A stretch of DNA of 64,000 bases from Bacillota bacterium. GTDB lineage: Bacteria > Bacillota > Clostridia > Christensenellales > UBA1242. The notes under the pieces are model-generated. The model made no database searches, was not told the origin of the DNA, and saw nothing but the letters and a program-made list of their open reading frames with translations. The translations under genes were made by a program, and so were the position numbers. Shown piece after piece: positions 5,982-63,785 of the stretch. The stretch spans positions 979 through 64,978 of the forward strand of contig WRAD01000002.1 in assembly GCA_009780375.1 (NCBI GenBank). Direction: 5' to 3'. Position 1 is the first letter of the stretch; each line of letters starts with the position of its first letter.

Positions 5982-6102
5982 AATAATTTATTATATTTAC
6001 GGTCGCTTATTTAAGTGATTACCTAGCAATGCAAAGCATAAATGCATGATTATATATGTAACCCCTTGGAATTATCCAAGGGGTGTCTTAACTTCGTAAT
6101 AT

Positions 6103-7389
<1,287 letters not shown>

Positions 7390-15847: not shown

Positions 15848-15939
15848 ATATCTAACTTTACTCGCATATATAAAAAATGAGTGTTAAAAAAGTAATGGTT
15901 GTTGGTCAATATATAATGTTTCTGTTATATAATGCAGGT

Positions 15940-16359
15940 ATGGTTTGTTGCAAGTGTCAAAACGAGTACACTATAAAGAATGGGACTCGTCATGGAAAGC
16001 AATGTTATTTGTGTAAAGGTTGCGGGTTTCAATTCACAGGTGACTATGCATTTATCGAACAAGAAAAGCGTGTTGTGTTGACACTTGCTTGTTTTGGATT
16101 ATCCATGCGAAAGATTGGCATGATGCTTGGGTACAGTCACGTTACAATTTGCAATTGGATACGGGCGTTTGAAAAATCCAGAGTCACACCAAACGAAGAT
16201 TATTTTATGGATCTAGACGAAATGTGCGAGTTTTTGAAAATGCGGCAAAGCAATCCACGATTAGGCAGGCGGTTTTCAACAATACAACAGGCACTTACTT
16301 GGAATGTTGAAAATGAAATGTCAAAGATAATCGAAAAAGTATTCACGTCATTAGCATAA
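15940..16359 (+). pseudogene. IS1-family transposase N-terminal remnant (zinc ribbon + HTH, DDE core missing)
   Basis: CCKCQ..14 aa..CYLCKGCGFQF zinc ribbon, an HTH (LSMRKIGMMLGYSHVTICNWIRAF), and then MDLDEMCEF, which resembles the first catalytic D region of IS1 InsAB. The ORF ends shortly afterwards. Confidence 0.5.
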
Positions 16360-17077: not shown

Positions 17078-17151
17078 GGCACCGTCGCCAAGCGGTAAGG
17101 CCGAGGTCTGCAAAACCTCTATCCCCGGTTCGATTCCGGGCGGTGCCTCCA
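17078..17151 (+). tRNA. tRNA-Cys (anticodon GCA), encoded CCA
   Basis: GGCACCG..GCCAAGCGGTAAGGC..GAGGTCTGCAAAACCTC..CCGGTTCGATTCCGG CGGTGCC T CCA folds as a clean cloverleaf. Confidence 0.9.
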
Positions 17152-17652
17152 ATGAGTAATATTATTGCTAAACGTTCAAGCAGGGCACGTATTGATGTAA
17201 TAGGTGCCGCAATAGTGTTTACATTGATTGCCACAGGGTTTTGTGCACTTTGGGTACTTGTATTTGTTAATCAGCCACCAAGCGTTAATAGTATTGTGAT
17301 AGCTGTGGTTTCTATGACCGCGTTATTACTTATAATATTTTGGCAGCTTCGACTTAATTATAATAAAATCCATCCTGACAGAATAATTATTGATGGCCAA
17401 AAACTTGTTCTTGTAAAACCCGCCTCACGGACAGATATAAAAAAAAACGCGTCAAAGCAAGAGCGGAAAGAAAATAAAATTCAAAAATTTGAACACATAG
17501 AAATTTATCTTAAGGATATCATGTCGTGTACATACGAAAAGCACACGATAACAATAACAACGCAAAGTGGGCAAGAATTCAAGCAAGACTATATTGACGG
17601 TACGGAAGAGGTTGCCAAACTTGTAAACAGTTTATTCGCAAGTTATAGGTAA
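17152..17652 (+). CDS. Hypothetical membrane protein (two TM helices plus a soluble C-terminal domain); its 3' end is the target site of the mobile element
   Basis: Start moved to ATG 17152, because the GTG at 17143 used by the track lies inside tRNA-Cys. The last four codons and the stop fall within the 17-bp direct repeat. Confidence 0.5.
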   Translation: MSNIIAKRSSRARIDVIGAAIVFTLIATGFCALWVLVFVNQPPSVNSIVIAVVSMTALLLIIFWQLRLNYNKIHPDRIIIDGQKLVLVKPASRTDIKKNASKQERKENKIQKFEHIEIYLKDIMSCTYEKHTITITTQSGQEFKQDYIDGTEEVAKLVNSLFASYR

Positions 17653-17657
17653 CCTTT
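17641..17657. repeat. Left direct repeat (target-site duplication or att core): AGTTATAGGTAACCTTT
   Basis: Identical 17-mer at 27965-27981. Confidence 0.9.
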
Positions 17658-17685
17658 GGGGGCGGTACAGACATTTGCCAGTAAG
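17658..17685. repeat. Left terminal inverted repeat: GGGGGCGGTACAGACATTTGCCAGTAAG
   Basis: Matches the reverse complement of 27937-27964 at 21 of 28 positions without gaps. The GTACAGA and GCCAGTAAG blocks are identical. Confidence 0.7.
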
Positions 17686-17989
17686 AGTTGAATAAATGTC
17701 CGAAACCTTTCATTGACATAGAGTATTTTGGTTCGTTAATTAATTATATGATAGAGTTTTATTTTTGCCTAACGATTTTTAGTGTTTTTATTACTTATTT
17801 TTGCATACAAAACTTGACCGCTTTGTGTTTGCGTAGCAAATCAAAGTGGAACGGGGTTTGGGGGATTGTTGTAATTTACGTTGTACATTTGCTGAGATAA
17901 TAGGACTCAATTTTGGCGATAATATTTAGATTTGTCCCCAACTTTATTTATCCTTTATGCACCCTTTAGGGTACTACGGGCGTGAATTG

Positions 17990-19078
17990 TTAGTTTAGAC
18001 CATATCGGGCGAGTTCTTGGGTATGGGATGGAATGAAGTTTATATTTTTGAGTAGGCGGATTTTTTCGGTGATTTTGCCTTGTGTAATTTGGGTGAGAAA
18101 ATCTTTACGTTTATGGTTTGGTGTGATATGTCTTTTGCCTGTTATGTCAGATTTTAATTTGCGATGGGTACAATAATTATTTTGACGGTAATTCCATAGT
18201 TTGCCTTTGTCTCGTAAATCTTCGAGCGAGGAAAAACTTGCGATGTGCTTTGAATAGAATTGTTCATTGTCAATGCGGTGGACTGTTTCAACTTGCCCTT
18301 GTTGCCATGGCGTACGTGGCGGAACTCGCTTATGTATGATTCTTAGCTTCCTGCAATATTCACCGAAGATATGTGTAGCGGTTGGAGCGTGTGGGTGACA
18401 AAATTCTTTCCCGTTATCTGTTTGTATTACTTGCGGAATGCAACCACAGAATTGAATATATCGGCGTGTAAAGTCCTTTGTGTTTTCACCACAAAGTTCA
18501 GAGTACCAGTATTTAAAGACTTCTTTACTTGCTTCATCTTTGGCTGTGTATTGATAAAATTTTACATTGTCCACTTCGTTCATTAATAAGGCTTTGCCTG
18601 TTAAACACTCGTCAGGAACGTATTTGACATCGAATTGTACTTTGCCACCTATGACAGTTGCACAATGATAAATTTGACGTTCAATTTTTGTACGTGGTTC
18701 TTTGATATTGAAGCCTAGTTTTCTTGCTCGTTTTTTAAAACCCTCATAACTGCGTATATATTTCTTTTCGTAAACTAATCTACCATATTTTTCATTAAGT
18801 CCGACATCTGGGTATATTTTGAAAATTCGTTTTATAAGGTTATCTTCTTTTGGTTTGTGTGTTTTCTTATCTGGTGTTTTAGGACAACTTGATTTGTTTG
18901 TTAAACTTGCAAGAGTACCATCATACTTCCTTCGCCACTTCCATAACGTGCGTTCATGGCATTGGAATTTTTCAGCGACGATAATATCTTTTTTATAATC
19001 ATAGTCATACTTTAATTTCCAGTACTTAAGGGCTTTTTCTTTTTGCTCGGGTGTATGTCTTTTGCGTATTGTAATCAT
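17990..19078 (-). CDS. DDE (rve-type) transposase/integrase of the element
   Basis: N-terminal HTH (..AEKFQCHERTLWKWRRKYDG..) and a catalytic triad in context: QFDVKYVP, IQTDNGKEF and PWQQGQVETVHR. Confidence 0.8.
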   Translation of the reverse strand: MITIRKRHTPEQKEKALKYWKLKYDYDYKKDIIVAEKFQCHERTLWKWRRKYDGTLASLTNKSSCPKTPDKKTHKPKEDNLIKRIFKIYPDVGLNEKYGRLVYEKKYIRSYEGFKKRARKLGFNIKEPRTKIERQIYHCATVIGGKVQFDVKYVPDECLTGKALLMNEVDNVKFYQYTAKDEASKEVFKYWYSELCGENTKDFTRRYIQFCGCIPQVIQTDNGKEFCHPHAPTATHIFGEYCRKLRIIHKRVPPRTPWQQGQVETVHRIDNEQFYSKHIASFSSLEDLRDKGKLWNYRQNNYCTHRKLKSDITGKRHITPNHKRKDFLTQITQGKITEKIRLLKNINFIPSHTQELARYGLN

Positions 19079-19083
19079 GCATA

Positions 19084-19112
19084 ATTATACAAAATGTAAA
19101 TACGAATTTCAA
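19084..19112 (-). promoter_or_regulatory. Promoter of the transposase gene (TTGAAA-17-TATAAT), implying a leaderless or near-leaderless mRNA
   Basis: On the minus strand: TTGAAA (19112-19107), a 17-nt spacer, and TATAAT (19089-19084). The ATG begins 5 nt after the -10 box and has no SD. Confidence 0.5.
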
Positions 19113-19115
19113 GAC

Positions 19116-19307
19116 CTACTCAAAAAATACAGATATATTTTGCAAAAATCTAAACTTGGTTGTTTTGTAGATATATTCTTTTACCCCAATTTCAATTAAA
19201 CGTGTAACGTCCTGAGCGATAATTTCATGTGTTCGATATTTTGCAGTAGTACACGGCTTCCAATCGAAATAGATAACTGCTTTTGTAAATTGTAAATTTG
19301 TAAACAT
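19116..19307 (-). CDS. Hypothetical small protein (63 aa)
   Basis: ORF only. It lies between rep and the transposase gene. Confidence 0.3.
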   Translation of the reverse strand: MFTNLQFTKAVIYFDWKPCTTAKYRTHEIIAQDVTRLIEIGVKEYIYKTTKFRFLQNISVFFE

Positions 19308-19321
19308 TTTAATTCCTTTTA

Positions 19322-20407
19322 TTAAAACGGCATTTTTGCCTTTTTTTCTTCGGTTAGTTCAATCAAACCATATTCAGTGTCAAACATTCTCATTTGTCGT
19401 GGGTTCGGTGGGGGTTGGTCGTTTATAAATGCGTCTATATGGGCTTGACTGTCAAAGTTATAAATGTGATGTATTCGCCGTAAAAATGCATTGTATGTTT
19501 CGGGTTCTTCGACTTGAATATTTGGGTATTGCCTATGAATCGGTATGTTTGTTGTGATGAAAACTTTTGTATAACATGCGGTCTTATCTTCATATCGACA
19601 AGGCAACCGTAACGGATGTCCATCTAAGTAGTTCAATATTTGCGATATTTTAAAGCCGTTTCTAAATTCTTCTAACATGATAATGTCTTGACCTTCGTAA
19701 TTATCAAAAGCCCGTTGGTCATATTCGGTAACCCTAAAAACATTGCGATAGCCGTATTTTTGAGTTATGTTTCTAGTTTTGTGTACACCTGTTTTACCAT
19801 AAATATAGCAAACTTTCATTTTGCGAAACACGTCACCGAATTTTTCGTCTTGGTATTCGTTGATAAGTTCAACAATTTTTTTCTTGTGCATAAATGCTTG
19901 GGTCGGGTATAATTCGCGAATTTGTGCAAGTCTCATACCACTTTTGGCAAGTGCCATGATATTTATAAGGTCGGTTCGAGTTCTTTCTTCTGTAAGGTCT
20001 CCACCTTCAAAAAATTTATGACCTTCGATACTTGTTGAGCGTTTTAAAATATAGTTTCGGTTTTGTGTAGCATTGCCTTTTGATTGAACACACCAACAAT
20101 TGGGGGGTAAAATTTGATGCTTGACAGTGTTCCAGTTTTTGCGATTATGTAAAACTATGAAGAATTGAAAATGTATTAATCTTGTTTCTTCACCCTTTTC
20201 ACGCTTAAAGCAAAAATATTTAACTTCGGGTTGGTTATCTAAATATTCGAAAAATTGCTCATCAGTCATTTCAGGGTTTGCAAGACGGCAAGTCCAACGA
20301 ACACCAGTTTTTGTTACATCAATATTTTGTTGATTATCTGTTTCAACGATATCAATGATATTTCCGTCATCGTCGGTTTTGACTTCAAAATTTTGCTCTT
20401 TTTCCAT
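19322..20407 (-). CDS. Rolling-circle replication initiator: HUH-type endonuclease fused to an SF3 helicase (CRESS-like Rep)
   Basis: Motif I RWTCRLANP (compare RWVFTLNNP), motif II HFQFFIV (HUQ variant), motif III NRNYILKR (YxxK). Walker A is YGKTGVHKT, Walker B DIIMLEEF, motif C VFITTN. An SD (AAGGGGA) lies upstream. Confidence 0.75.
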   Translation of the reverse strand: MEKEQNFEVKTDDDGNIIDIVETDNQQNIDVTKTGVRWTCRLANPEMTDEQFFEYLDNQPEVKYFCFKREKGEETRLIHFQFFIVLHNRKNWNTVKHQILPPNCWCVQSKGNATQNRNYILKRSTSIEGHKFFEGGDLTEERTRTDLINIMALAKSGMRLAQIRELYPTQAFMHKKKIVELINEYQDEKFGDVFRKMKVCYIYGKTGVHKTRNITQKYGYRNVFRVTEYDQRAFDNYEGQDIIMLEEFRNGFKISQILNYLDGHPLRLPCRYEDKTACYTKVFITTNIPIHRQYPNIQVEEPETYNAFLRRIHHIYNFDSQAHIDAFINDQPPPNPRQMRMFDTEYGLIELTEEKKAKMPF

Positions 20408-20449
20408 GTGTTCCCCTTATGAAAATTTTGTTCGGGCGATTTGTTCACC

Positions 20450-20647
20450 CTAGAAATTTCGTACTGTATCCAGCTTCAATTTTGGTTGTTTTTGTTCTTT
20501 GCATTCGATTGCCTTCATTTTTCGGCTTAATGCTCTGTATTCATCTTTAAGTCGCCAAATTTCCACTAAACACAATTCGGTTGACTGAATAAGTTTTCTT
20601 TCAATTTCAGCCATGCGGTGAAAAATATAATTTTTGTCGTTAATCAT
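20450..20647 (-). CDS. Hypothetical small coiled-coil protein (65 aa)
   Basis: ORF with charged, heptad-like sequence directly upstream of rep. Confidence 0.4.
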   Translation of the reverse strand: MINDKNYIFHRMAEIERKLIQSTELCLVEIWRLKDEYRALSRKMKAIECKEQKQPKLKLDTVRNF

Positions 20648-28134: not shown

Positions 28135-31100
28135 ATGAAAATATTTTTTAAAAGAACGCAAAAGGTTTTCCTTTCGCTTATGCTTACACTTTGTATAGTG
28201 GTGCCTGCGGTTCTGCTTGCCGGTTGTGGCGGTAATTCGCGTGCGTCAAGATTTCGCATAAACGAGGGCACATACAGGGCATCGGCGATTCATGCAACTT
28301 TGGGAAATAATACATTTGACCTCGTAAATGATAATTTGGCCCAGCCTATGGCAAATGAACTTCGTGATATTGTTCTTGGTTTATTAAATGAAGATAATTT
28401 AGATGGTTTGTTTGGGCTTCTTCAAAGTCTTACAGGAAGTTTAGGTGACATAGATCTTCTATCGTTGTTGAATATGGATTTAGATCAAATTATTGAGGAC
28501 GAACTTTTGTCACTTTTGTCACAAGCAAATAACTTACATCTTACCGAACAAATGCGTAATCAAATTGCCAATCTTATAATTCGTTATACAAGAACACTCG
28601 GTGATGATATAAGCCGACTTGTTCGAAATTTGCTTGGAACAGAACTTTCACTTGATGGGTTTATGCGTGCCGCACTTGTAGAAAACATTACGACTGATTT
28701 TCTTATGCAAATGCTTGTATCTGGTGATGTTCCGCCATCTTTTCATGCAAGTTTGCGTGACATTTTCTTGGAATTTGGATTTATACGTACAAATCAATCA
28801 TTGCTTGATGTTGTCAGAGATGTTATTCCACAAGGGATAACAGGTCTTGGAAGTGCAATTGATTTAACAGGTCTTGTAAATCTTTATAACATAGTTAATT
28901 CGGTTTTGCCAGAAGGGGTAGACATCGAAGATGTTGCATTTGATTGGACAAGCGACGAGCAATTTGCACTTATATTTGATTTGATTTTTGGCATGATGGA
29001 TCTTGACGAGCCAAATGTTATCGAGGCAAGGCTTGATCCAGGTTTTGATTTATATATAAGTCTTGATGTAAATGGACTTATCTTATCACTTCCTGGGCTT
29101 ATGACCGATGTTCATTTTCAAGGTTTTCATGGTTCTGCACTTTTTGATGAAGTTGTAAAGCATCTCTTGTATGTAATAGTCTCGGATGTTTCATTTTATC
29201 ACTTGTTCAGAAACATCGAATTCTTCCGTTTCATGCAAAGTCACATGCCATCAATGGGTGGATTTCTTGACGGCATTCTTGCGGTTACCGAGTGGCTTAA
29301 TATAACTAATATTGCACAAGGTCTTTTTAATACGTTTGATCAAAATATACGTGAAAAAGTCTATACCGCGATTGCACTTGATCTTTGGCAACAAGAATCA
29401 GGTTGGGTAAATTGGAGTGCCGACATAAATGCATATCTTGCAGGGCAGAGAACAAGACCTGGATCCGGAATAGGTTATGGGTTTTGGCATCTTGATATTA
29501 ATTGGGGTAATATGACCCGTTTTGGACCATATGACATACGATCGTATCATTATATTTCAACCGACATAGCAATGTGGAGAAATCGAATAGGCAACACATC
29601 TCAATGGTATACAAATTTTGCAAATAGAGGAAGTATATCAAATCATATGCAACTTTTTACCCGTGTTGGTGAAAACATGCGTGCAAATGGTCGCTTTCGC
29701 AATGATCACACAATGGGTGAAAATGTTGATACCGCACTTTTGTGGGGGCGAAACGCATGGCACTTTGTTGACAGAGGATATCTTACTGTTCGCCAAATCG
29801 GAGGACTTGTAAGTGTAAGTGTAGGTCCAGTCATGGAAGTTATTCATATGGCACTTGATGATCTTGTTCCAACTCTTATGGCAGCCCAAGGTCTTAATAT
29901 CCAAATGGAAGATCTTATAAATTTGATAGTAATATTTTCAGATATGTACAGTGTGTTTTCTCATCAAATACATGACATATATATTCATCTTATACGCCAG
30001 CGTGATGGTGTTTCTAACAATACAGATGGTGAGGTTATTGTAAGACTCTTGGCGTCCATCGAGCCATTTCTTATAGATCTTTTGCAAGATGAAATGATAA
30101 TGGGCCTTGCAAGGGATTTGTTGCCAGGTCTTGTTGCAGGTCTTGTGCCGCCACCATTTGACAGTGATTATCTTGTCGAATACGCGTTTGATTTTGTGTT
30201 TGATAATGTCGAGGAGTTTATCGGAATTCTTCTTGGAAGTGATGATATCATAACAGACTTGTGGTTCTTTTTTGAAGATGCAATTCTTGACATTCTCGAT
30301 GATGATTATCTTATGCAGGTTCTCGTCAACATTGCAAATTATTTTATACCGCCGCAATTTTCTGATCCGGTTGCGGTTGATTTTCTTGTTGATGTTATAC
30401 GTACGCAACTTCCAAGACTTGTTCGTACAAGTTGTGTTGTGTCCACTTTATTTGAAACAAACGGTGTTCTTTCTGTGCTTGTAAATACAACGCGTAATCC
30501 GATAATTGCAAATTATGTGCTTGACACCCTTGTTCCTATACTTGTAAATATGGTGCCAGTTGAATTTCAACCAATATTTGATATTCTGGGCGAAGATTCA
30601 ATGTCATTTATATATTGGTCGATTGTTAATGCATTACCACAATTAATCGCAACAAATGATTTTGCAATGATGATGGCGTTTGTGTTGTACGATACAATTG
30701 TTCACCTTGCCGCAAATGAAGAGCTTATCGAATTTGCAATAGAACTTGTTATTGAGAATATGGCATCCTTGCTTGAAATTGAAACATCTTCAGATCCAAA
30801 CCAAGCAATAGATCTTGTATTTGTAATTATTTCCCATCTTGTTCCAATGCTTGTTGCAAACGATGAACTTGTTGACATTACAATTAATGTGCTTGTTTTT
30901 AACATTCCAGGTGTTCTTGCCGTTCCAGAACTTCGCACATTTTTGTTTAATCTTATTGAAACGGAACTTCAAAATGCGGTGGACGGCCTTCATCTCCAGT
31001 CACTTGTACGTAACGCACTTGAAACAGGTAATGCAACTGTTGATGCAATCTTGTGGGATTTGACCATTGAGCGATTTGATTTTGATGCGATTCTTGAAAA

Positions 31101-32409
31101 CATAATATCTAATGTAGTAACATTTGAAAATTTTGATGCAATTTTGACGCTTTTGACAACAGAACTTGAAAACTTGACCAGCGATTTGACAAATGTTACA
31201 ATTGACAATTTGCTCGAGCAACTTGTTGCACGACTTACTTCGCCAGAACTTATCACAGATGGTGTTGATTTTGTTGCAGATTCAATTAATGAGGCAATTG
31301 ATTTTATTGCAACAACACTTGCAACCTTTATACGTAATGGCGGACTTCAAGGTTTATATGGATATGTGATTGGCGGCGTTGCACATTTTCTTGATATTGG
31401 TGCAATCAAACATGACATAACAGGAATCATTACAGATTATGCTCCAGACTTTGTTGAAACACTTGTTCAAAATTTAGATTTATCAGTATTAATTACAGGA
31501 CTCGTCGAAACAATTCAAATACAAGACCAAGATATTGCCAATATTATAGACATTGCACTTGACATTATTAATTTGGAAGAATTTGCAAATGTGCTTGTTG
31601 TTGATTTGGTTGAATATTTGGTAGATCTTCTTGGTGATTATGCAACAGTATTAACATTTGTAGAATTTATAATCGCAGATCTTTGTCAGATAGCAAATCT
31701 TGATGGGCTTAATAACATTACAAATGCACTTGTAAGAAGCATTATTAACGGATTTGATGAAATTGAAGTTATTAATAATATTTTGGAAATTACATTTAAT
31801 CACCTTGTAATAGAGATTAAAGATATTGTTTCAAGTGAGAGACTTGGTTATCTTATTGATGCGGTTATAACAACTTTTATAGGCGATATTGGCGAGATAA
31901 TGAGTGGTGTTATTGACTTTTTGCAAATAATTACGCTTGGTATAAGTGGCGATAATTTCAGAATTGGTGGAATTAACCAGTTACTTGGAAGTTTGCTTGC
32001 CGGATCGGTCTCGCCTGCTATGCTTGATGCGATTAACGTGGCACTTAATCCAATTTTAAACAGAGTGGTTTATAGGCTTGATTCAGATGGAAGTATTGGG
32101 TTGTACTTTCATAATCAAGGTAATTATACCCCACTTCTTGATATGATATTGTCAATTCCAATTCTGCATACAGTGATAGGCACATTTACAGATATAAATA
32201 TAAATGACTTTTTGGCATCAGGATTATTTGGTGCAAGAATTCACTATGATACACTTAACGGTGAAATTACGTTTATAGCAGGGCTTAGTGTCGCTGATTT
32301 ATTTGAACTTGTTCCTGTTCTGGATCTTGTAGGGATATCTATACCATCTGCTGTGCCTAATTTTGTTCTTAATTTGAACATGGATATTGCTTTGACTTTT
32401 GCTGCATAA
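28135..32409 (+). CDS. Giant (1424 aa) acidic lipoprotein of unknown function with a helical-repeat-like composition
   Basis: Start set at MKIFFKRTQKVFLSLMLTLCIVVPAVLLAGCGG (lipobox LLAGC). The rest is dominated by L/I/V/D/E/N/F, has few K/R, and shows recurring ..D(L/F)(L/I)V(D/E)..(I/L).. segments. Confidence 0.7.
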   Translation: MKIFFKRTQKVFLSLMLTLCIVVPAVLLAGCGGNSRASRFRINEGTYRASAIHATLGNNTFDLVNDNLAQPMANELRDIVLGLLNEDNLDGLFGLLQSLTGSLGDIDLLSLLNMDLDQIIEDELLSLLSQANNLHLTEQMRNQIANLIIRYTRTLGDDISRLVRNLLGTELSLDGFMRAALVENITTDFLMQMLVSGDVPPSFHASLRDIFLEFGFIRTNQSLLDVVRDVIPQGITGLGSAIDLTGLVNLYNIVNSVLPEGVDIEDVAFDWTSDEQFALIFDLIFGMMDLDEPNVIEARLDPGFDLYISLDVNGLILSLPGLMTDVHFQGFHGSALFDEVVKHLLYVIVSDVSFYHLFRNIEFFRFMQSHMPSMGGFLDGILAVTEWLNITNIAQGLFNTFDQNIREKVYTAIALDLWQQESGWVNWSADINAYLAGQRTRPGSGIGYGFWHLDINWGNMTRFGPYDIRSYHYISTDIAMWRNRIGNTSQWYTNFANRGSISNHMQLFTRVGENMRANGRFRNDHTMGENVDTALLWGRNAWHFVDRGYLTVRQIGGLVSVSVGPVMEVIHMALDDLVPTLMAAQGLNIQMEDLINLIVIFSDMYSVFSHQIHDIYIHLIRQRDGVSNNTDGEVIVRLLASIEPFLIDLLQDEMIMGLARDLLPGLVAGLVPPPFDSDYLVEYAFDFVFDNVEEFIGILLGSDDIITDLWFFFEDAILDILDDDYLMQVLVNIANYFIPPQFSDPVAVDFLVDVIRTQLPRLVRTSCVVSTLFETNGVLSVLVNTTRNPIIANYVLDTLVPILVNMVPVEFQPIFDILGEDSMSFIYWSIVNALPQLIATNDFAMMMAFVLYDTIVHLAANEELIEFAIELVIENMASLLEIETSSDPNQAIDLVFVIISHLVPMLVANDELVDITINVLVFNIPGVLAVPELRTFLFNLIETELQNAVDGLHLQSLVRNALETGNATVDAILWDLTIERFDFDAILENIISNVVTFENFDAILTLLTTELENLTSDLTNVTIDNLLEQLVARLTSPELITDGVDFVADSINEAIDFIATTLATFIRNGGLQGLYGYVIGGVAHFLDIGAIKHDITGIITDYAPDFVETLVQNLDLSVLITGLVETIQIQDQDIANIIDIALDIINLEEFANVLVVDLVEYLVDLLGDYATVLTFVEFIIADLCQIANLDGLNNITNALVRSIINGFDEIEVINNILEITFNHLVIEIKDIVSSERLGYLIDAVITTFIGDIGEIMSGVIDFLQIITLGISGDNFRIGGINQLLGSLLAGSVSPAMLDAINVALNPILNRVVYRLDSDGSIGLYFHNQGNYTPLLDMILSIPILHTVIGTFTDININDFLASGLFGARIHYDTLNGEITFIAGLSVADLFELVPVLDLVGISIPSAVPNFVLNLNMDIALTFAA

Positions 32410-44940: not shown

Positions 44941-45009
44941 AATTCATTTTATCACATTTACAGGCGAACGGGCAAGAAATATCAACGTGAGATAAATGAA
45001 ATTTGACCG

Positions 45010-45471
45010 TTGGCATCGACATTGTTCAGGCGGTCAATGGCGATGGCATTCGCAAAGCATTTAAACGCGCATGTCACGGCGACAGACATCAGCGAGGAAG
45101 CACTCGAGGTGGCGCGCCATAATGCAAGGATAAACGGCGCGGACATTGAGTTTTTACAAAGCGACATGTTTGACCGTATTGCTGACGAATACGACCTTAT
45201 AGTTTCAAACCCACCAAGCTCGACAACGTACAAAATCATCGCACTAGATCAAAGCGGCGAATTGTTGTGCCCAAGGATAGCGAGGGATGGAGGCGAGGAT
45301 GGACTGAAAAGATTGCGTCAAGTGACAGCAGGAGCGGGCGATTACCTCGAACGCGGCGGCTCGCTTGTTGTGCAAACATGCTATAACCCCGCAGAGATAG
45401 AAAAACTGATAAAGATGGATCGTAGGTTTTCGCAAGAGAATATAAACAGAATCATGTGCGCAAAAGGATAG
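45010..45471 (+). pseudogene. N-terminally truncated HemK/PrmC-like class I methyltransferase fragment
   Basis: ..HVTATDISEEALEVARHNARINGADIEF..DLIVSNPPSS..PRIARDGGEDGL.. follows the HemK pattern. It lacks the GxGxG SAM loop region, reads NPPSS instead of NPPY, and has only a TTG start. Confidence 0.5.
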
Positions 45472-45521
45472 ACACGTGCGTTCGCGGCAAAAATATCAGA
45501 CGAACGCGAGATATAAAAACA

Positions 45522-45550
45522 TTGACACACCGCTGCAAGTGGCATATAAT
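45522..45550 (+). promoter_or_regulatory. Consensus promoter (TTGACA-17-TATAAT) of the beta-eliminating lyase leader
   Basis: TTGACA at 45522-45527, a 17-nt spacer, and TATAAT at 45545-45550. Confidence 0.65.
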
Positions 45551-45560
45551 ATACACAGAC

Positions 45561-45644
45561 ATGAACGAATTACGAAAATCGGTAGTAGCAGTTTATTATT
45601 ACCGCAAGTCGAGGCAACGACGTGCGGCTTTTTGCGTGAGATAG
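45561..45644 (+). CDS. Candidate leader peptide (27 aa) with three consecutive Tyr codons
   Basis: MNELRKSVVAVYYYRKSRQRRAAFCVR. The ATG lies about 10 nt after the -10 box and has no SD, so the transcript would be leaderless. Hairpin 45602-45627 plus a T5 run starts right after the YYY codons. Confidence 0.35.
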   Translation: MNELRKSVVAVYYYRKSRQRRAAFCVR

Positions 45645-45679
45645 TGCATAGCATATAAGACAAAAACACCACACCCCGT

Positions 45680-45716
45680 CCGCCTCGAATTACACGAGAG
45701 CAGGCGGGTTTTTTTT
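45680..45716 (+). terminator. Intrinsic terminator/attenuator directly upstream of the lyase gene
   Basis: CCGCCT...AGGCGG stem followed by T8, ending about 45 nt before the ATG at 45761. Confidence 0.65.
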
Positions 45717-45760
45717 GTGAGTCGTTCATGTCGAAAACGAAAACAAAAAAGGAGTCCAAA

Positions 45761-47275
45761 ATGGAAACAATAAGAACCTCGACTCCGTCGAGAACCTTGG
45801 ACATTAAGGATAATTTATCCAAATGTTCGCAAGGCGAACGGGTCATAAAATTGCTAAGCGGTGAGGATTTGCCGCTTGAAATGCACAAGACGACAATCGT
45901 CAAAAAATTAAACTTGATGCCGATTGATGAACGGGTGGCCGCAATTGGGCGTGCGGGCAGCAATACCTTTCTGCTAAAAAGCAACGAGGTATTTTTGGAT
46001 ATGCTGACGGACAGCGGAACCAATGCCATGAGTGACAAACAGCAGGCATCCATGTTCATAGCGGATGACGCCTACTCAGGCAGCGAAAGCTTCTACAGAT
46101 TAGAGGCCATCTTGCAAAAAGTATTCCGCAAGAAATTCTTTTGGCCAGCGCACCAAGGGCGAGCTTGCGAACATATCCTTTCGCGGTTGCTGGTAAAACC
46201 CGGGGATGTTATTCCGACGAATTACCATTTCACTACAACGCGGGCCCACATTAAACTGCAGGGCGGAACCATGATTGAAATTTTCACGGATGACGCAATG
46301 CAGGTCAAATCAACAAACCCATTCAAAGGCAATATTGATATTGGGAAACTTGAACAAGCATTCAAAGACTTCAGCGGGAAAATCCCATTTGTGCGATTGG
46401 AGGCGGGAACGAACCTGATCGGCGGCCAACCGATTTCGCTTGAAAACATCAGGCAGACGGCGGAAATTTGCAAAGCGAACGGCGTGCCTTTGATGATGGA
46501 TGCGAGCCTTCTGCAAGACAATTTATTTTTCATCAAAACGCGTGAGGCATCATGTCGGGATAAAACCATCCTTGAAATTTGCAACGAAGTCGCAAGCCAT
46601 ATCGATATAATCTACTTTTCGGCGCGAAAATTCGGTGCAGCACGTGGCGGCGGAATTTGTTTGGATGATCCGATGCTGGCCGACAAGATCAAGGAACTCA
46701 TCCCCCTATTCGAGGGCTTTATTACATACGGCGGAATGAGCAGCCGCGAGATGGAGGCAATCGCTGTCGGGATTGATGAAACGATGGACTTTGATAACAT
46801 CAGTCAAGGCCCACAATTTATCAAATTCATGGTGGATGAATTGGAAAACGCAGGCGTTCCCGTCGTGACACCAGCGGGCGGCTTGGGTGTTCATTTGGAT
46901 GCGCGGGCATTCCTTCCCCATGTACCACCCGAGCAATTACAGGCGGCATCATTAAGCGCGGCACTATACATCGTATCAGGCGCACGCGGGATGGAACGCG
47001 GCACGGGATCCGAGGATCGAAACCCAGATGGAACCGAATGTATCGCCAATTTGGAGTTGATAAGATTGGCAATGCCGCGGCGGGTTTTCACCATGAGTCA
47101 AATCAAATTCGTGATTGATAGGATCATTTGGCTTTGGAAAAACAAAGAACTTGTCGGCGGATTGAAATGGCGAAATGAACCCAAAATCATGCGTTTCTTT
47201 TTCGGTGAGCTTGAACCAATTGGGGATTGGCAAGAACGCCTTGCCAAGAAATTCAAAAAAGACGGGGGCGCATAA
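45761..47275 (+). CDS. Beta-eliminating lyase family enzyme (tryptophanase / tyrosine phenol-lyase type)
   Basis: Collinear with E. coli TnaA: FLDMLTDSGTNAMS, DDAYSGSESFY, PAHQGRACEHIL, GGQPISLENI, MDASLLQDNLFFIK and FSARKFGAARGGGI (PLP-Lys region). Start set at METIRT after AAGGAG. Confidence 0.85.
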   Translation: METIRTSTPSRTLDIKDNLSKCSQGERVIKLLSGEDLPLEMHKTTIVKKLNLMPIDERVAAIGRAGSNTFLLKSNEVFLDMLTDSGTNAMSDKQQASMFIADDAYSGSESFYRLEAILQKVFRKKFFWPAHQGRACEHILSRLLVKPGDVIPTNYHFTTTRAHIKLQGGTMIEIFTDDAMQVKSTNPFKGNIDIGKLEQAFKDFSGKIPFVRLEAGTNLIGGQPISLENIRQTAEICKANGVPLMMDASLLQDNLFFIKTREASCRDKTILEICNEVASHIDIIYFSARKFGAARGGGICLDDPMLADKIKELIPLFEGFITYGGMSSREMEAIAVGIDETMDFDNISQGPQFIKFMVDELENAGVPVVTPAGGLGVHLDARAFLPHVPPEQLQAASLSAALYIVSGARGMERGTGSEDRNPDGTECIANLELIRLAMPRRVFTMSQIKFVIDRIIWLWKNKELVGGLKWRNEPKIMRFFFGELEPIGDWQERLAKKFKKDGGA

Positions 47276-63404: not shown

Positions 63405-63748
63405 TTCACTCTGAGCCAGCCTGTAAGCCGAGTTCTGTATTTGATGATTATCTATCTAGGCGCTATGTTGCCATAACGCTCGAGCGGTGTATGGACGAAC
63501 GACGCTGGCCACGTTTAAATGTTCGCCTCTAACCTTGCATCGAGTGGGGTTTAACTTGCCACCCTTGTCACCAAGAGTGCGGTGAGCTCTTACCTCGCCT
63601 TTTCAACCTTACCTGCATTAAATGCCGGCGGTAATTTTCTGTGCCACTTTCCTTCATGTCACCATGACAGGCCGTTAGCCTGCACCCTGCCATATGATGC
63701 TCGGACTTTCCTCGTAGGTTTTTGACCCACGCAATCATCTGACTGACA
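63405..63748 (-). ncRNA. rnpB: RNase P RNA, bacterial type A
   Basis: The minus strand contains GAGGAAAGTCCGAGC (P4), GGCAGGGTGCAGGCTAACGGCCTG, GGTAAGGTTGAAAAGGCGAGGTAAGAGCTCACCGC, GTTAAACCCCACTCGATGCAAGG and ACAGAACTCGGCTTACAGG. It is collinear with the E. coli M1 RNA. The ends are approximate. Confidence 0.9.
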
Positions 63749-63785
63749 CTAATATTATATCATATAATTGGCAATATATCAATAC

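Follow-up and report, generated by a model that had tools for sequence, protein, structure and literature searches.

A circovirus-type Rep in a Zot-encoding, transposase-bearing element of a Bacillota chromosome

The 64,000-nucleotide stretch of DNA analysed here (the window) derives from a Bacillota bacterium of the class Clostridia (assembly GCA_009780375.1, contig WRAD01000002.1, positions 979 to 64,978). Its minus strand carries an open reading frame (ORF) whose 361-residue product, Rep, resembles the replication initiators of circular Rep-encoding single-stranded (CRESS) DNA viruses such as circoviruses. The rep gene sits inside one 10.3-kb mobile element (window 17641-27981) that also encodes a Zot/pI-like morphogenesis ATPase and a DDE transposase. 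Table 1 collects the features of the element.

The Rep protein and its domains

Sequence comparison and structural modelling confirm the assignment of the protein as a CRESS-type Rep, predicted to fuse a nuclease of the HUQ type to a superfamily 3 (SF3) helicase. A preliminary description of the locus had proposed this circovirus-style arrangement from six strings (RWTCRLANP, HFQFFIV, NRNYILKR, YGKTGVHKT, DIIMLEEF and VFITTN), all of which are present in the ORF and align with their counterparts in Rep of porcine circovirus 2 (PCV2). The Pfam family Viral_Rep (PF02407) matches residues 38-122 at 31.1 bits (cut-off 26), and RNA_helicase (PF00910, an SF3 family) scores 18.2 bits, slightly under its cut-off of 21.5. 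A phmmer search of the PDB aligned residues 36-299 with residues 15-268 of PCV2 Rep (7LAR) at E 5.2e-9, an alignment that covers both domains.

The nuclease domain contains motif I (RWTCRLANP), the metal ligand E70, motif II (H79-F-Q81) and motif III (Y119xxK122). Aligned to 7LAR, these pair RWTCRLANP with RWVFTLNNP, HFQFF with HLQGF and YILK with YCSK, such that E70 corresponds to E48 of PCV2 Rep, H79-F-Q81 to H57-L-Q59, Y119 to Y96 and K122 to K99. In the SF3 domain Walker A is GKTGVHKT (with the replacement G209H), Walker B is IIMLEEF, motif C has N287, and R310 and R311 are the arginine fingers; the PCV2 equivalents are GPPGCGKS for Walker A, VVVIDDF for Walker B and, opposite VFITTN, ILITSN. 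E70, H79, Y119, K122, K210 and N287 are invariant across a 32-sequence alignment of Rep and its homologues, and the window Rep also keeps K210/T211, E246/E247 and R310/R311. An AlphaFold2 model built from the 32 homologues has a mean predicted local distance difference test (pLDDT) score of 87.7, and its best Foldseek matches are all CRESS-virus Reps, with full-length Vientovirus Rep at E 1.7e-15. The nuclease part of the model superposes on M-Rep of faba bean necrotic yellows virus (FBNYV; 6h8o, TM-score 0.89) and on PCV2 Rep (6wdz, 0.75), the ATPase part on PCV2 Rep (8xms, TM-score 0.78, root-mean-square deviation 1.7 Å). Thus the best matches lie within the HUH enzymes, and the catalytic tyrosine and histidine align with those of the viral proteins.

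Many Reps of this family share a feature of the C-terminus. Their tails often carry an acidic run followed by (L/I/M)PF, as in ...VEDDDLPF or ...EEDLPF. The pattern xP[F/W] is present among the final 14 residues in 60 of 147 distinct Reps, as against 58 of 1,589 background ORFs, and stands exactly at the C-terminus in 25 of the 147 and 5 of the 1,589. The window Rep ends ...EEKKAKMPF (353-361), with KKAK where the acidic run would be expected. The C-terminal tip of bacterial single-stranded-DNA-binding protein (SSB; ...DDDIPF or ...DDLPF) is a docking site for replication and repair proteins. By this resemblance, the PF tail of the Rep family may mimic the SSB tip and recruit host factors.

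The 10.3-kb element and its transposition

The element is delimited by a perfect 17-nt direct repeat, AGTTATAGGTAACCTTT, which has only two copies in the window where chance would give none. Imperfect terminal inverted repeats (TIRs) of 21 nt begin 7 nt inside each direct repeat; none of 1000 shuffles equalled their score, and the TIR pattern is found in the window at the two element ends only, with no internal copy. With the element removed, the host sequence around a single repeat copy would read ...TTCGCA-AGTTATAGGTAACCTTT-TGATTGAC.... The insertion point is the stop codon of a host membrane-protein ORF (17143-17652) that lies 3' of a tRNA-Cys gene. This tRNA was considered as an attachment site and is ruled out, since the repeat is 490 nt downstream of it, at the stop codon of the ORF.

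The transposase matches PF00665 at 33.6 bits (cut-off 32.6); its best NCBIfam match is IS481 (NF033577) at 122 bits, under the equivalog cut-off of 224. Close homologues (E ~1e-143) stand at the end of four other elements that carry both Rep and Zot (loci L132, L134, L136 and L142) and adjoin Rep in a fifth locus, L005. Two of these loci hold the same element (L132, 8349-15620; L136, 9644-17311), with ends that are 99% identical, common TIRs and unrelated flanks. Their direct repeats differ, being 27 bp long at L132 and 25 bp at L136, as compared with 17 bp in the window. Because the same type of transposase is accompanied by different repeat sequences at different sites, the direct repeats are target-site duplications. 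The alternative, that the repeat is the core of a recombinase att site, is ruled out, as a conserved core would be identical everywhere. DDE transposition is therefore the means by which the phage-like unit moves as a whole, and the duplications that result (17-27 bp) are unusually long. IS481-family duplications usually do not exceed about 15 bp, long ones being typical of the IS1202 group. Other relatives of Rep carry tyrosine-recombinase-like integrases instead of a DDE transposase.

Since the best structural matches of Rep are to Reps of eukaryotic viruses, the gene might be a CRESS-virus sequence mis-assembled into a bacterial contig. This is next to impossible to reconcile with the data. 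An independent assembly (Logan SRR5215140, contig L166, 10,013 bp) is 100% identical to window 17829-27841, wholly inside the element; G+C is continuous, at about 37%; a Shine-Dalgarno sequence (AAGGGG) lies 5' of the rep start codon; and there are hundreds of homologues in Bacillota genomes, cultured isolates included. Contig L166 was also considered as a circular episome, which is not supported: it has no terminal overlap, and its ends lie 140-188 nt inside the repeats.

Fifteen of the 16 ORFs of the element are on the minus strand and every ORF is open. The Zot-like protein matches PF05707 at 23.3 bits (cut-off 20.3) and phrog_197 ('Zot-like toxin') at E 6.6e-10. Twelve further element proteins gave no significant match to Pfam, PHROGs or NCBIfam, and roles can be suggested for some of them only as candidates. 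By analogy with inovirus gene order, the 378-, 177- and 420-aa proteins are candidate minor virion, adsorption or assembly proteins. The 68-aa protein, judged from its sequence and position, is a candidate major coat protein, and the 128-aa product, from its position, a candidate ssDNA-binding protein. The product of the 150-aa ORF on the opposite strand is possibly a regulator or an exclusion protein. The intergenic region upstream of rep folds as ssDNA with -111.3 kcal/mol (z = -10.6; none of 100 shuffles was as stable).

Table 1. Features of the Rep-encoding element, in window coordinates (aa, amino acids).
Feature	Position	Strand	Description and basis
Left direct repeat	17641..17657	.	17 bp, AGTATTAGG-type target-site duplication, sequence AGTTATAGGTAACCTTT; overlaps stop codon of host ORF 17143-17652
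Left TIR	17665..17685	+	GTACAGACATTTGCCAGTAAG; 18/21 match to reverse complement of 27937-27957
DDE transposase	17990..19078	-	362 aa, rve domain, IS481-like; PF00665, phrog_8463 transposase, NCBIfam
63-aa ORF	19116..19307	-	Between rep and transposase gene; gene call also in contig L166; no family match
Rep	19322..20407	-	361 aa: N-terminal extension, HUQ nuclease, oligomerisation helices, SF3 ATPase, C-terminal tail closing with MPF
SF3 helicase/ATPase domain of Rep	19457..19816	-	About residues 198-317; PCV2 Rep alignment, Foldseek, conservation
HUH(Q) endonuclease domain of Rep	20000..20308	-	About residues 34-136; PF02407, PCV2 nuclease alignment, Foldseek
65-aa ORF	20450..20647	-	Between hairpin region and rep; ORF list
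Intergenic region	20648..21144	-	Strongly structured; candidate origin and packaging-signal region; ssDNA folding
Perfect 17-bp hairpin	20681..20721	-	CCGCAGTGTGCTAAAGG-TTCGTTC-CCTTTAGCACACTGCGG; about 300 nt upstream of rep
Second hairpin	20962..21011	-	21-nt arms, 81% complementary; core of long imperfect stem; candidate packaging signal or minus-strand origin
147-aa membrane protein	21145..21588	-	Hydrophobic N-terminus; immediately 3' of Zot; no significant family
Zot/pI-like morphogenesis ATPase	21604..22428	-	274 aa, P-loop PPRTGKTS; PF05707, phrog_197
Three overlapping ORFs (378, 177, 420 aa)	22410..25328	-	N-terminal hydrophobic segments and coiled coil; translational coupling; no family match
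68-aa protein	25325..25531	-	Strongly hydrophobic; directly 5' of 420-aa ORF; no family match
163-aa protein	25540..26031	-	N-terminal membrane or signal segment; no family match
150-aa ORF	26176..26628	+	Sole long opposite-strand gene; CxxC...CxxC then membrane segments; weak phrog_4929 match; gene call also in L166
Four small leading ORFs (128, 63, 67, 90 aa)	26664..27813	-	No family matches
Right TIR	27937..27957	-	GTACAGAGGTTCGCCAGTAAG; partner of 17665..17685
Right direct repeat	27965..27981	.	17 bp, target-site duplication; same sequence as left copy

Outside the element the window consists of chromosomal DNA that includes tRNA genes and RNase P RNA; the latter (bacterial class A, 63408-63750, minus strand, 278 bits) confirms the chromosomal context. 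Just outside the right element end a 1,436-aa ORF (28099-32409, plus strand) encodes an L/I/D/N-rich protein with a lipoprotein-like N-terminus (...LLAGCGG) and no Pfam match. Just 5' of the tRNA-Cys gene, a 160-aa ORF (15877-16359, plus strand) has a zinc-ribbon-like CxxC...CxxC start and an HTH_23 domain, recalling the small subunit of IS1-type transposase. G+C rises above the background of about 37% at 6001-7000 (53.5%) and at 45001-47000 (46-50%); no Rfam family, rRNA included, was found in either segment.

The Rep family, its Zot partner and its origin

In the protein database the Rep family comprises 44 cluster representatives, many of which are encoded on long contigs of Bacillota metagenome-assembled genomes. 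Pattern and tblastn scans gave 284 genomic loci, mostly from Clostridia, and 160 IMG/VR contigs, whose lengths are in many cases 4-9 kb; cultured isolates with homologues include Clostridium merdae and Pseudoflavonifractor capillosus. For comparison of gene neighbourhoods the best 80 loci of each of the two sets were fetched, and Zot was sought by an iterative hidden Markov model (HMM) search seeded with the window Zot.

This search detected a Zot-like ORF at 31 of the 83 genomic or metagenomic loci and at 53 of the 78 from IMG/VR; Rep and Zot are on the same strand in all 84. Zot precedes Rep by 0.1-2.3 kb, which is the arrangement of the window, or else follows it at 3-5 kb, an order that is the same circle opened at another point. 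In termite-gut contigs L001 and L002 the order is Zot, small ORF, Rep. When a permissive family HMM was applied to genomic loci in which Rep is flanked by 8 kb or more on each side, 20 of 36 had a Zot-like gene; this model also gave weak matches in the nearest relatives of the window element, L003 and L005. Complete circular genomes of bajarodino viruses in GenBank (5.7-10.2 kb, from rodent faeces, classified as Inoviridae) encode an initiator 33-37% identical to the window Rep, and bajarodino viruses 74 and 56 combine Zot, the same Rep type and a CTAGTATTACC hairpin. In PLSDB the only match to Rep is plasmid p4M of Bifidobacterium.

The possibility that an integrated pCRESS-type plasmid merely landed beside an unrelated Zot prophage deserves mention because Kazlauskas et al. 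(2019) class such Reps with integrated plasmids that lack viral structural genes, and because Zot was not detected at roughly half of the genomic loci. It is nonetheless very improbable and effectively refuted: a single pair of TIRs and target-site duplications encloses rep and zot with no TIR copy between them, the two genes keep the same strand at short or permuted distances in every locus where both occur, complete circular genomes hold both, and the supplementary table of Kazlauskas et al. itself places Zot inside the pCRESS2 element HugHat-E1. The Rep-Zot pairing is thus not a matter of chance, and the preliminary description was right to place both genes in one element and to look for Zot-like genes beside the homologues, which indeed occur there.

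The same description held that inovirus initiators lack a fused SF3 helicase, and that this Rep, if it does replicate a Zot-encoding element, would connect two separate worlds. The former statement is outdated. Roux et al. (2019) described an inovirus replication family, iPF_00203, in which a Rep with an HUH nuclease and a superfamily 3 helicase (HUH-S3H) occurs in Zot-encoding elements. Tisza et al. (2020) reported two circular genomes, ctbe30 and ctbc27, in which a CRESS-type Rep gene accompanies RstB, ZOT and inovirus capsid genes; the genomes have tblastx matches to bacterial chromosomes, and related prophages were described as well. Kazlauskas et al. (2019) defined pCRESS elements as plasmids without homologues of viral structural proteins, and their supplementary tables list Zot / 'I assembly protein' (100% probability) in HugHat-E1 of Hungatella hathewayi. 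The pairing that suggested the connection is real, but the connection itself was published in 2019-2020. That Zot-encoding filamentous phages can carry a circovirus-style Rep is therefore established.

To place the window Rep, pCRESS1, 2 and 3 sequences were transcribed from the alignment that Kazlauskas et al. (2019) provide as a supplement. BLAST bit scores were 135-209 against pCRESS2 (31-41% identity), 101-124 against pCRESS3, 56-66 against pCRESS1 and 53 against PCV2. In a bootstrapped neighbour-joining tree the protein falls in a 100%-supported clade of 12 HUQ Reps, mainly from termite-gut and other gut metagenomes, in which the 'GKW...ETNL' insert of crown pCRESS2 is absent. Together with the basal pCRESS2 sequence SCH60086, pCRESS3 and PCV2, the clade makes up an unresolved grade whose deep nodes are supported at less than 60%. 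The window Rep has both features given in the literature for the pCRESS2 group, a conserved asparagine in motif C (N287) and glutamate as the Walker B acidic residue (LEEF). These comparisons place it by sequence in the p4M-like assemblage, nearest to pCRESS2.

In two relatives, L003 and L004, a cassette resembling a diversity-generating retroelement (188-2541; RVT_1 reverse transcriptase and bAvd accessory protein) lies directly upstream of a phage-like gene block that closes with the Rep clade-mate P0010. The same block encodes a 910-aa GLUG-motif protein, which could be a diversified target.

A hairpin scan of all loci found that 129 of 162 have a stem-loop whose loop, read on the Rep-coding strand, contains AGTATTAC; in 110 of the 129 it lies upstream of the rep start codon at a distance of no more than 250 nt. 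Representative hairpins are GGCTAGGG-GCTAGTATTACC-CCTAGCC and GCGACGCAGTTCTAG-TAGTATTACC-TAGAACTGCGTCGC; in the genomes of bajarodino viruses 74 and 56 the hairpin is at -165 and -135. TAGTATTAC is the origin nonanucleotide of circoviruses and nanoviruses. The bacterial Rep family thus uses a complete CRESS-type cassette of Rep and a (T)AGTATTAC stem-loop. Most loci without the exact motif carry near-variants. Among the variant loops are TAATATTAC at L017 (a geminivirus-type nonanucleotide about 120 nt upstream of rep), TATTATTAC at L046 and GAGTGTTAC at L050, and therefore nick-site variation exists within the bacterial family.

The corresponding structure in the window is the perfect 17-bp hairpin upstream of rep. 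Its stem is homologous by alignment to the origin hairpins of three relatives, L005 (TCGCAGTGTCCGTATGG-CTAGTATTACC-CATACGGACACTGCGA), L013 and L018. No hairpin of the element contains a motif within two mismatches of TAGTATTAC; a NANTATTAC-type motif has 16 matches in the window against 11.6 expected, none of them in the intergenic region. At the 5' end of that region a short hairpin, CTAGTATC-AAAC-GATACTAC (21070-21105, minus strand), has TAGTAT (nonanucleotide bases 1-6) in its stem and not in its loop, which could be a relic or a coincidence.

HUH enzymes can be transposases, and with the element integrated and its hairpin loop non-canonical, one might take Rep to act mainly as an integrase or transposase, after the manner of IS91, Helitrons or the integration mediated by adeno-associated virus (AAV) Rep, and not as a replication initiator. 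The ends of the element argue otherwise, being those of a DDE transposon (inverted repeats and a duplication of fixed length) that also encodes an intact rve transposase. Relatives with the same transposase make the 25-27-bp duplications, other relatives use tyrosine-recombinase-like integrases, and the family origin hairpin adjoins rep and not the element ends. We regard an integrase role as highly improbable.

Proposed function and comparison with known systems

We propose that Rep is, very probably, the rolling-circle replication initiator of an integrated, transposase-mobilised 10.3-kb element of the inovirus/Tubulavirales type in a Bacillota chromosome. The filamentous-phage traits of the element are the pI/Zot ATPase, its size, genes almost confined to one strand and a structured intergenic region. 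By analogy with circovirus and nanovirus Reps and with Ff-type phages, the transposase would put the double-stranded form into the chromosome and would probably also copy the element back out. On the circular replicative form Rep would bind the origin hairpin, and Tyr119, next to a metal site made up of E70, H79 and Q81, would nick the plus strand in the loop. With Rep linked to the 5' end, a host polymerase would extend the 3'-OH while the SF3 hexamer unwinds the DNA, and Rep would rejoin the displaced strand into circular ssDNA. The Zot/pI machinery would then coat this ssDNA with small hydrophobic coat proteins and extrude it through the membrane.

Several observations weigh against this proposal. 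A virion, an ssDNA form or replication has not been observed for the element or its 12-sequence clade. No coat protein is recognisable by homology in Pfam, PHROGs or NCBIfam, and the Zot is short (274 aa) with no obvious membrane segment. No sibling element was found in IMG/VR, using either the hairpin stem with any loop or the window Zot as query, and no empty target site was found in two exact-pattern scans of metagenome contigs, which also missed the source contig. About half of the genomic Rep loci are without detectable Zot, and therefore the Rep family is not restricted to filamentous phages. Finally, both the origin and Rep of this copy depart from the family: the hairpin loop, TTCGTTC, is unrelated to the (T)AGTATTAC nonanucleotide, and among the 47 alignment columns with conservation of 87% or more Rep differs in 8 (T41R, N43A, T77L, F92W, H105W, R182I, G209H and F245L).

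The window Rep is the second most deviant of the 32 sequences, clade-mates having 0-5 deviations and most of them 0-4. The replaced motif I threonine and first asparagine (T41R and N43A) are present in 30-31 of 31 homologues. The second P-loop glycine, which is His209 here, is glycine in 30 of 31, so that the Walker A motif is atypical as the preliminary description had it; the homologue P0035 likewise lacks this glycine. T41 corresponds to T20 of PCV2 Rep (motif I), T77 to T55 (motif II) and H105 to H82, and H105 is within a strand modelled at residues 104-108 (AlphaFold2). The motif I threonine positions motif II residues for Mn2+ binding, a threonine before HUQ is nearly invariant in viral Reps, and exchange of β4 ('sDBM') alters the ssDNA preference of a Rep (PMC8780604).

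The sequences indicate that the origin loop and Rep of the window copy have changed together, which would mean either a co-evolved shift of specificity or a loss of function, with constraint relaxed on replication functions that the transposase may render dispensable. Loss of function would make the copy a decaying relic in which Rep and origin are dead, while the element persists or moves by its DDE transposase alone, heading towards a plectrovirus-like state with a transposase in place of Rep. Such decay would account for a loop without the nonanucleotide on a stem homologous to the origins of relatives, for the degree of deviation of this Rep from its clade-mates, for the loss of the motif I and II threonines, the β4 ssDNA-binding histidine and the P-loop glycine, and for KKAK in place of the acidic run ahead of the C-terminal PF. 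We nevertheless think it rather unlikely. The ORF is full-length with its catalytic residues intact (E70, H79, Q81, Y119, K122, K210, E246/E247, N287 and R310/R311), the 17-bp stem is perfectly paired, and P0035 shows that the P-loop glycine is missing elsewhere; the target-site duplications are still identical and all ORFs of the element open, which argues for recent activity.

What may be new is the family-wide circovirus-type origin and, in this copy, the joint divergence of origin and Rep. In the literature searched we found no report of a TAGTATTAC origin for these bacterial elements, no author saying outright that elements of the pCRESS2 type are often filamentous phages, and no long-duplication transposase; such absence is no proof of novelty. 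The link between Rep and filamentous phages is under-appreciated: pCRESS Reps are still presented as proteins of plasmids in a 2021 structural review, and a 2026 commentary on realm-level taxonomy lists Rep_trans, HUH, RepL and DDE as filamentous-phage modules with no mention of HUH-S3H. Plasmids of the pCRESS2/3 type have been proposed as ancestors of the replication module of circoviruses, nanoviruses and smacoviruses. A wider scenario, which we offer as speculative and on balance doubtful, is that these 'plasmids' are largely filamentous phages that already hold the full CRESS cassette, an HUQ/HUH-S3H Rep with a TAGTATTAC origin upstream of rep. A bacterial virus would then be the source of the eukaryotic CRESS module, origin and Rep having been passed on together, and the window copy would represent a rare co-changed state, through either a switch of nick site or a plectrovirus-like hand-over to the DDE transposase.

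The known headline opens no new field; the origin of the family and the joint divergence merit specialist attention. A canonical TAGTATTAC origin with bacterial Reps would offer a tractable bacterial system for circovirus-type initiation. An altered origin loop, combined with substituted residues for metal positioning and ssDNA contact, amounts to a natural experiment on Rep-origin specificity.

Among described systems, pCRESS2 (Kazlauskas et al. 2019, Nat Commun 10:3425) shares with the window element the HUH-SF3 domain order, the motif C asparagine, the Glu-type Walker B, Bacillota hosts and integrated elements flanked by direct repeats. The basal members SCH60086.1 and WP_036328238.1 are also HUQ, like the window Rep. 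The window Rep differs in belonging to a separate HUQ clade without the crown insert, and its element carries a morphogenesis module whereas pCRESS2 elements were published as plasmids.

The iPF_00203 family, ctbe30/ctbc27 and bajarodino viruses 74, 13, 56, 30 and 2 all resemble the window element in having a rolling-circle replication nuclease with a C-terminal S3H in Zot-encoding filamentous-phage genomes or prophages. Bajarodino virus 74 (PQ006121, 10.2 kb) is similar in size and has the same order of genes, namely Zot, Rep, a hypothetical gene and a 362-aa transposase. Its transposase is, however, not detectably homologous to the rve protein of the window. Abutted transposon ends were sought in this genome, but there was no clear junction and the comparison was dropped, the transposases being non-homologous. 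The bajarodino Reps are only 33-37% identical to the window Rep, and these viruses keep the CTAGTATTACC origin hairpin that the window lacks.

Reps of Circoviridae, Nanoviridae and Redondoviridae (PCV2 7LAR/6WDZ, FBNYV 6H8O and Vientovirus 9PQQ) have the same fold in both domains and agree with the window Rep in the HUQ motif II, YxxK, the E/H/Q metal triad, the SF3 motifs (A in atypical form here, B and C) and the arginine finger. The wider bacterial family further shares with circovirus-type Reps the TAGTATTAC origin loop on the Rep-coding strand. Identity is about 17-22% and the host of the window element is bacterial. These viruses have a jelly-roll capsid, whereas the window Rep is partnered with a filamentous-phage morphogenesis module and DDE integration; compared with circovirus-type Reps, the threonines of motifs I and II and the P-loop glycine are missing from the window copy.

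Plectroviridae (Vespertiliovirus of Spiroplasma, with IS3/IS30-family DDE transposases) provide the parallel of a filamentous-phage-type element that inserts by means of an encoded transposase. They have no Rep and are thought to replicate by transposition, whereas the window element has both Rep and a transposase, the latter IS481-like and associated with duplications that, at 17-27 bp, are unusually long.

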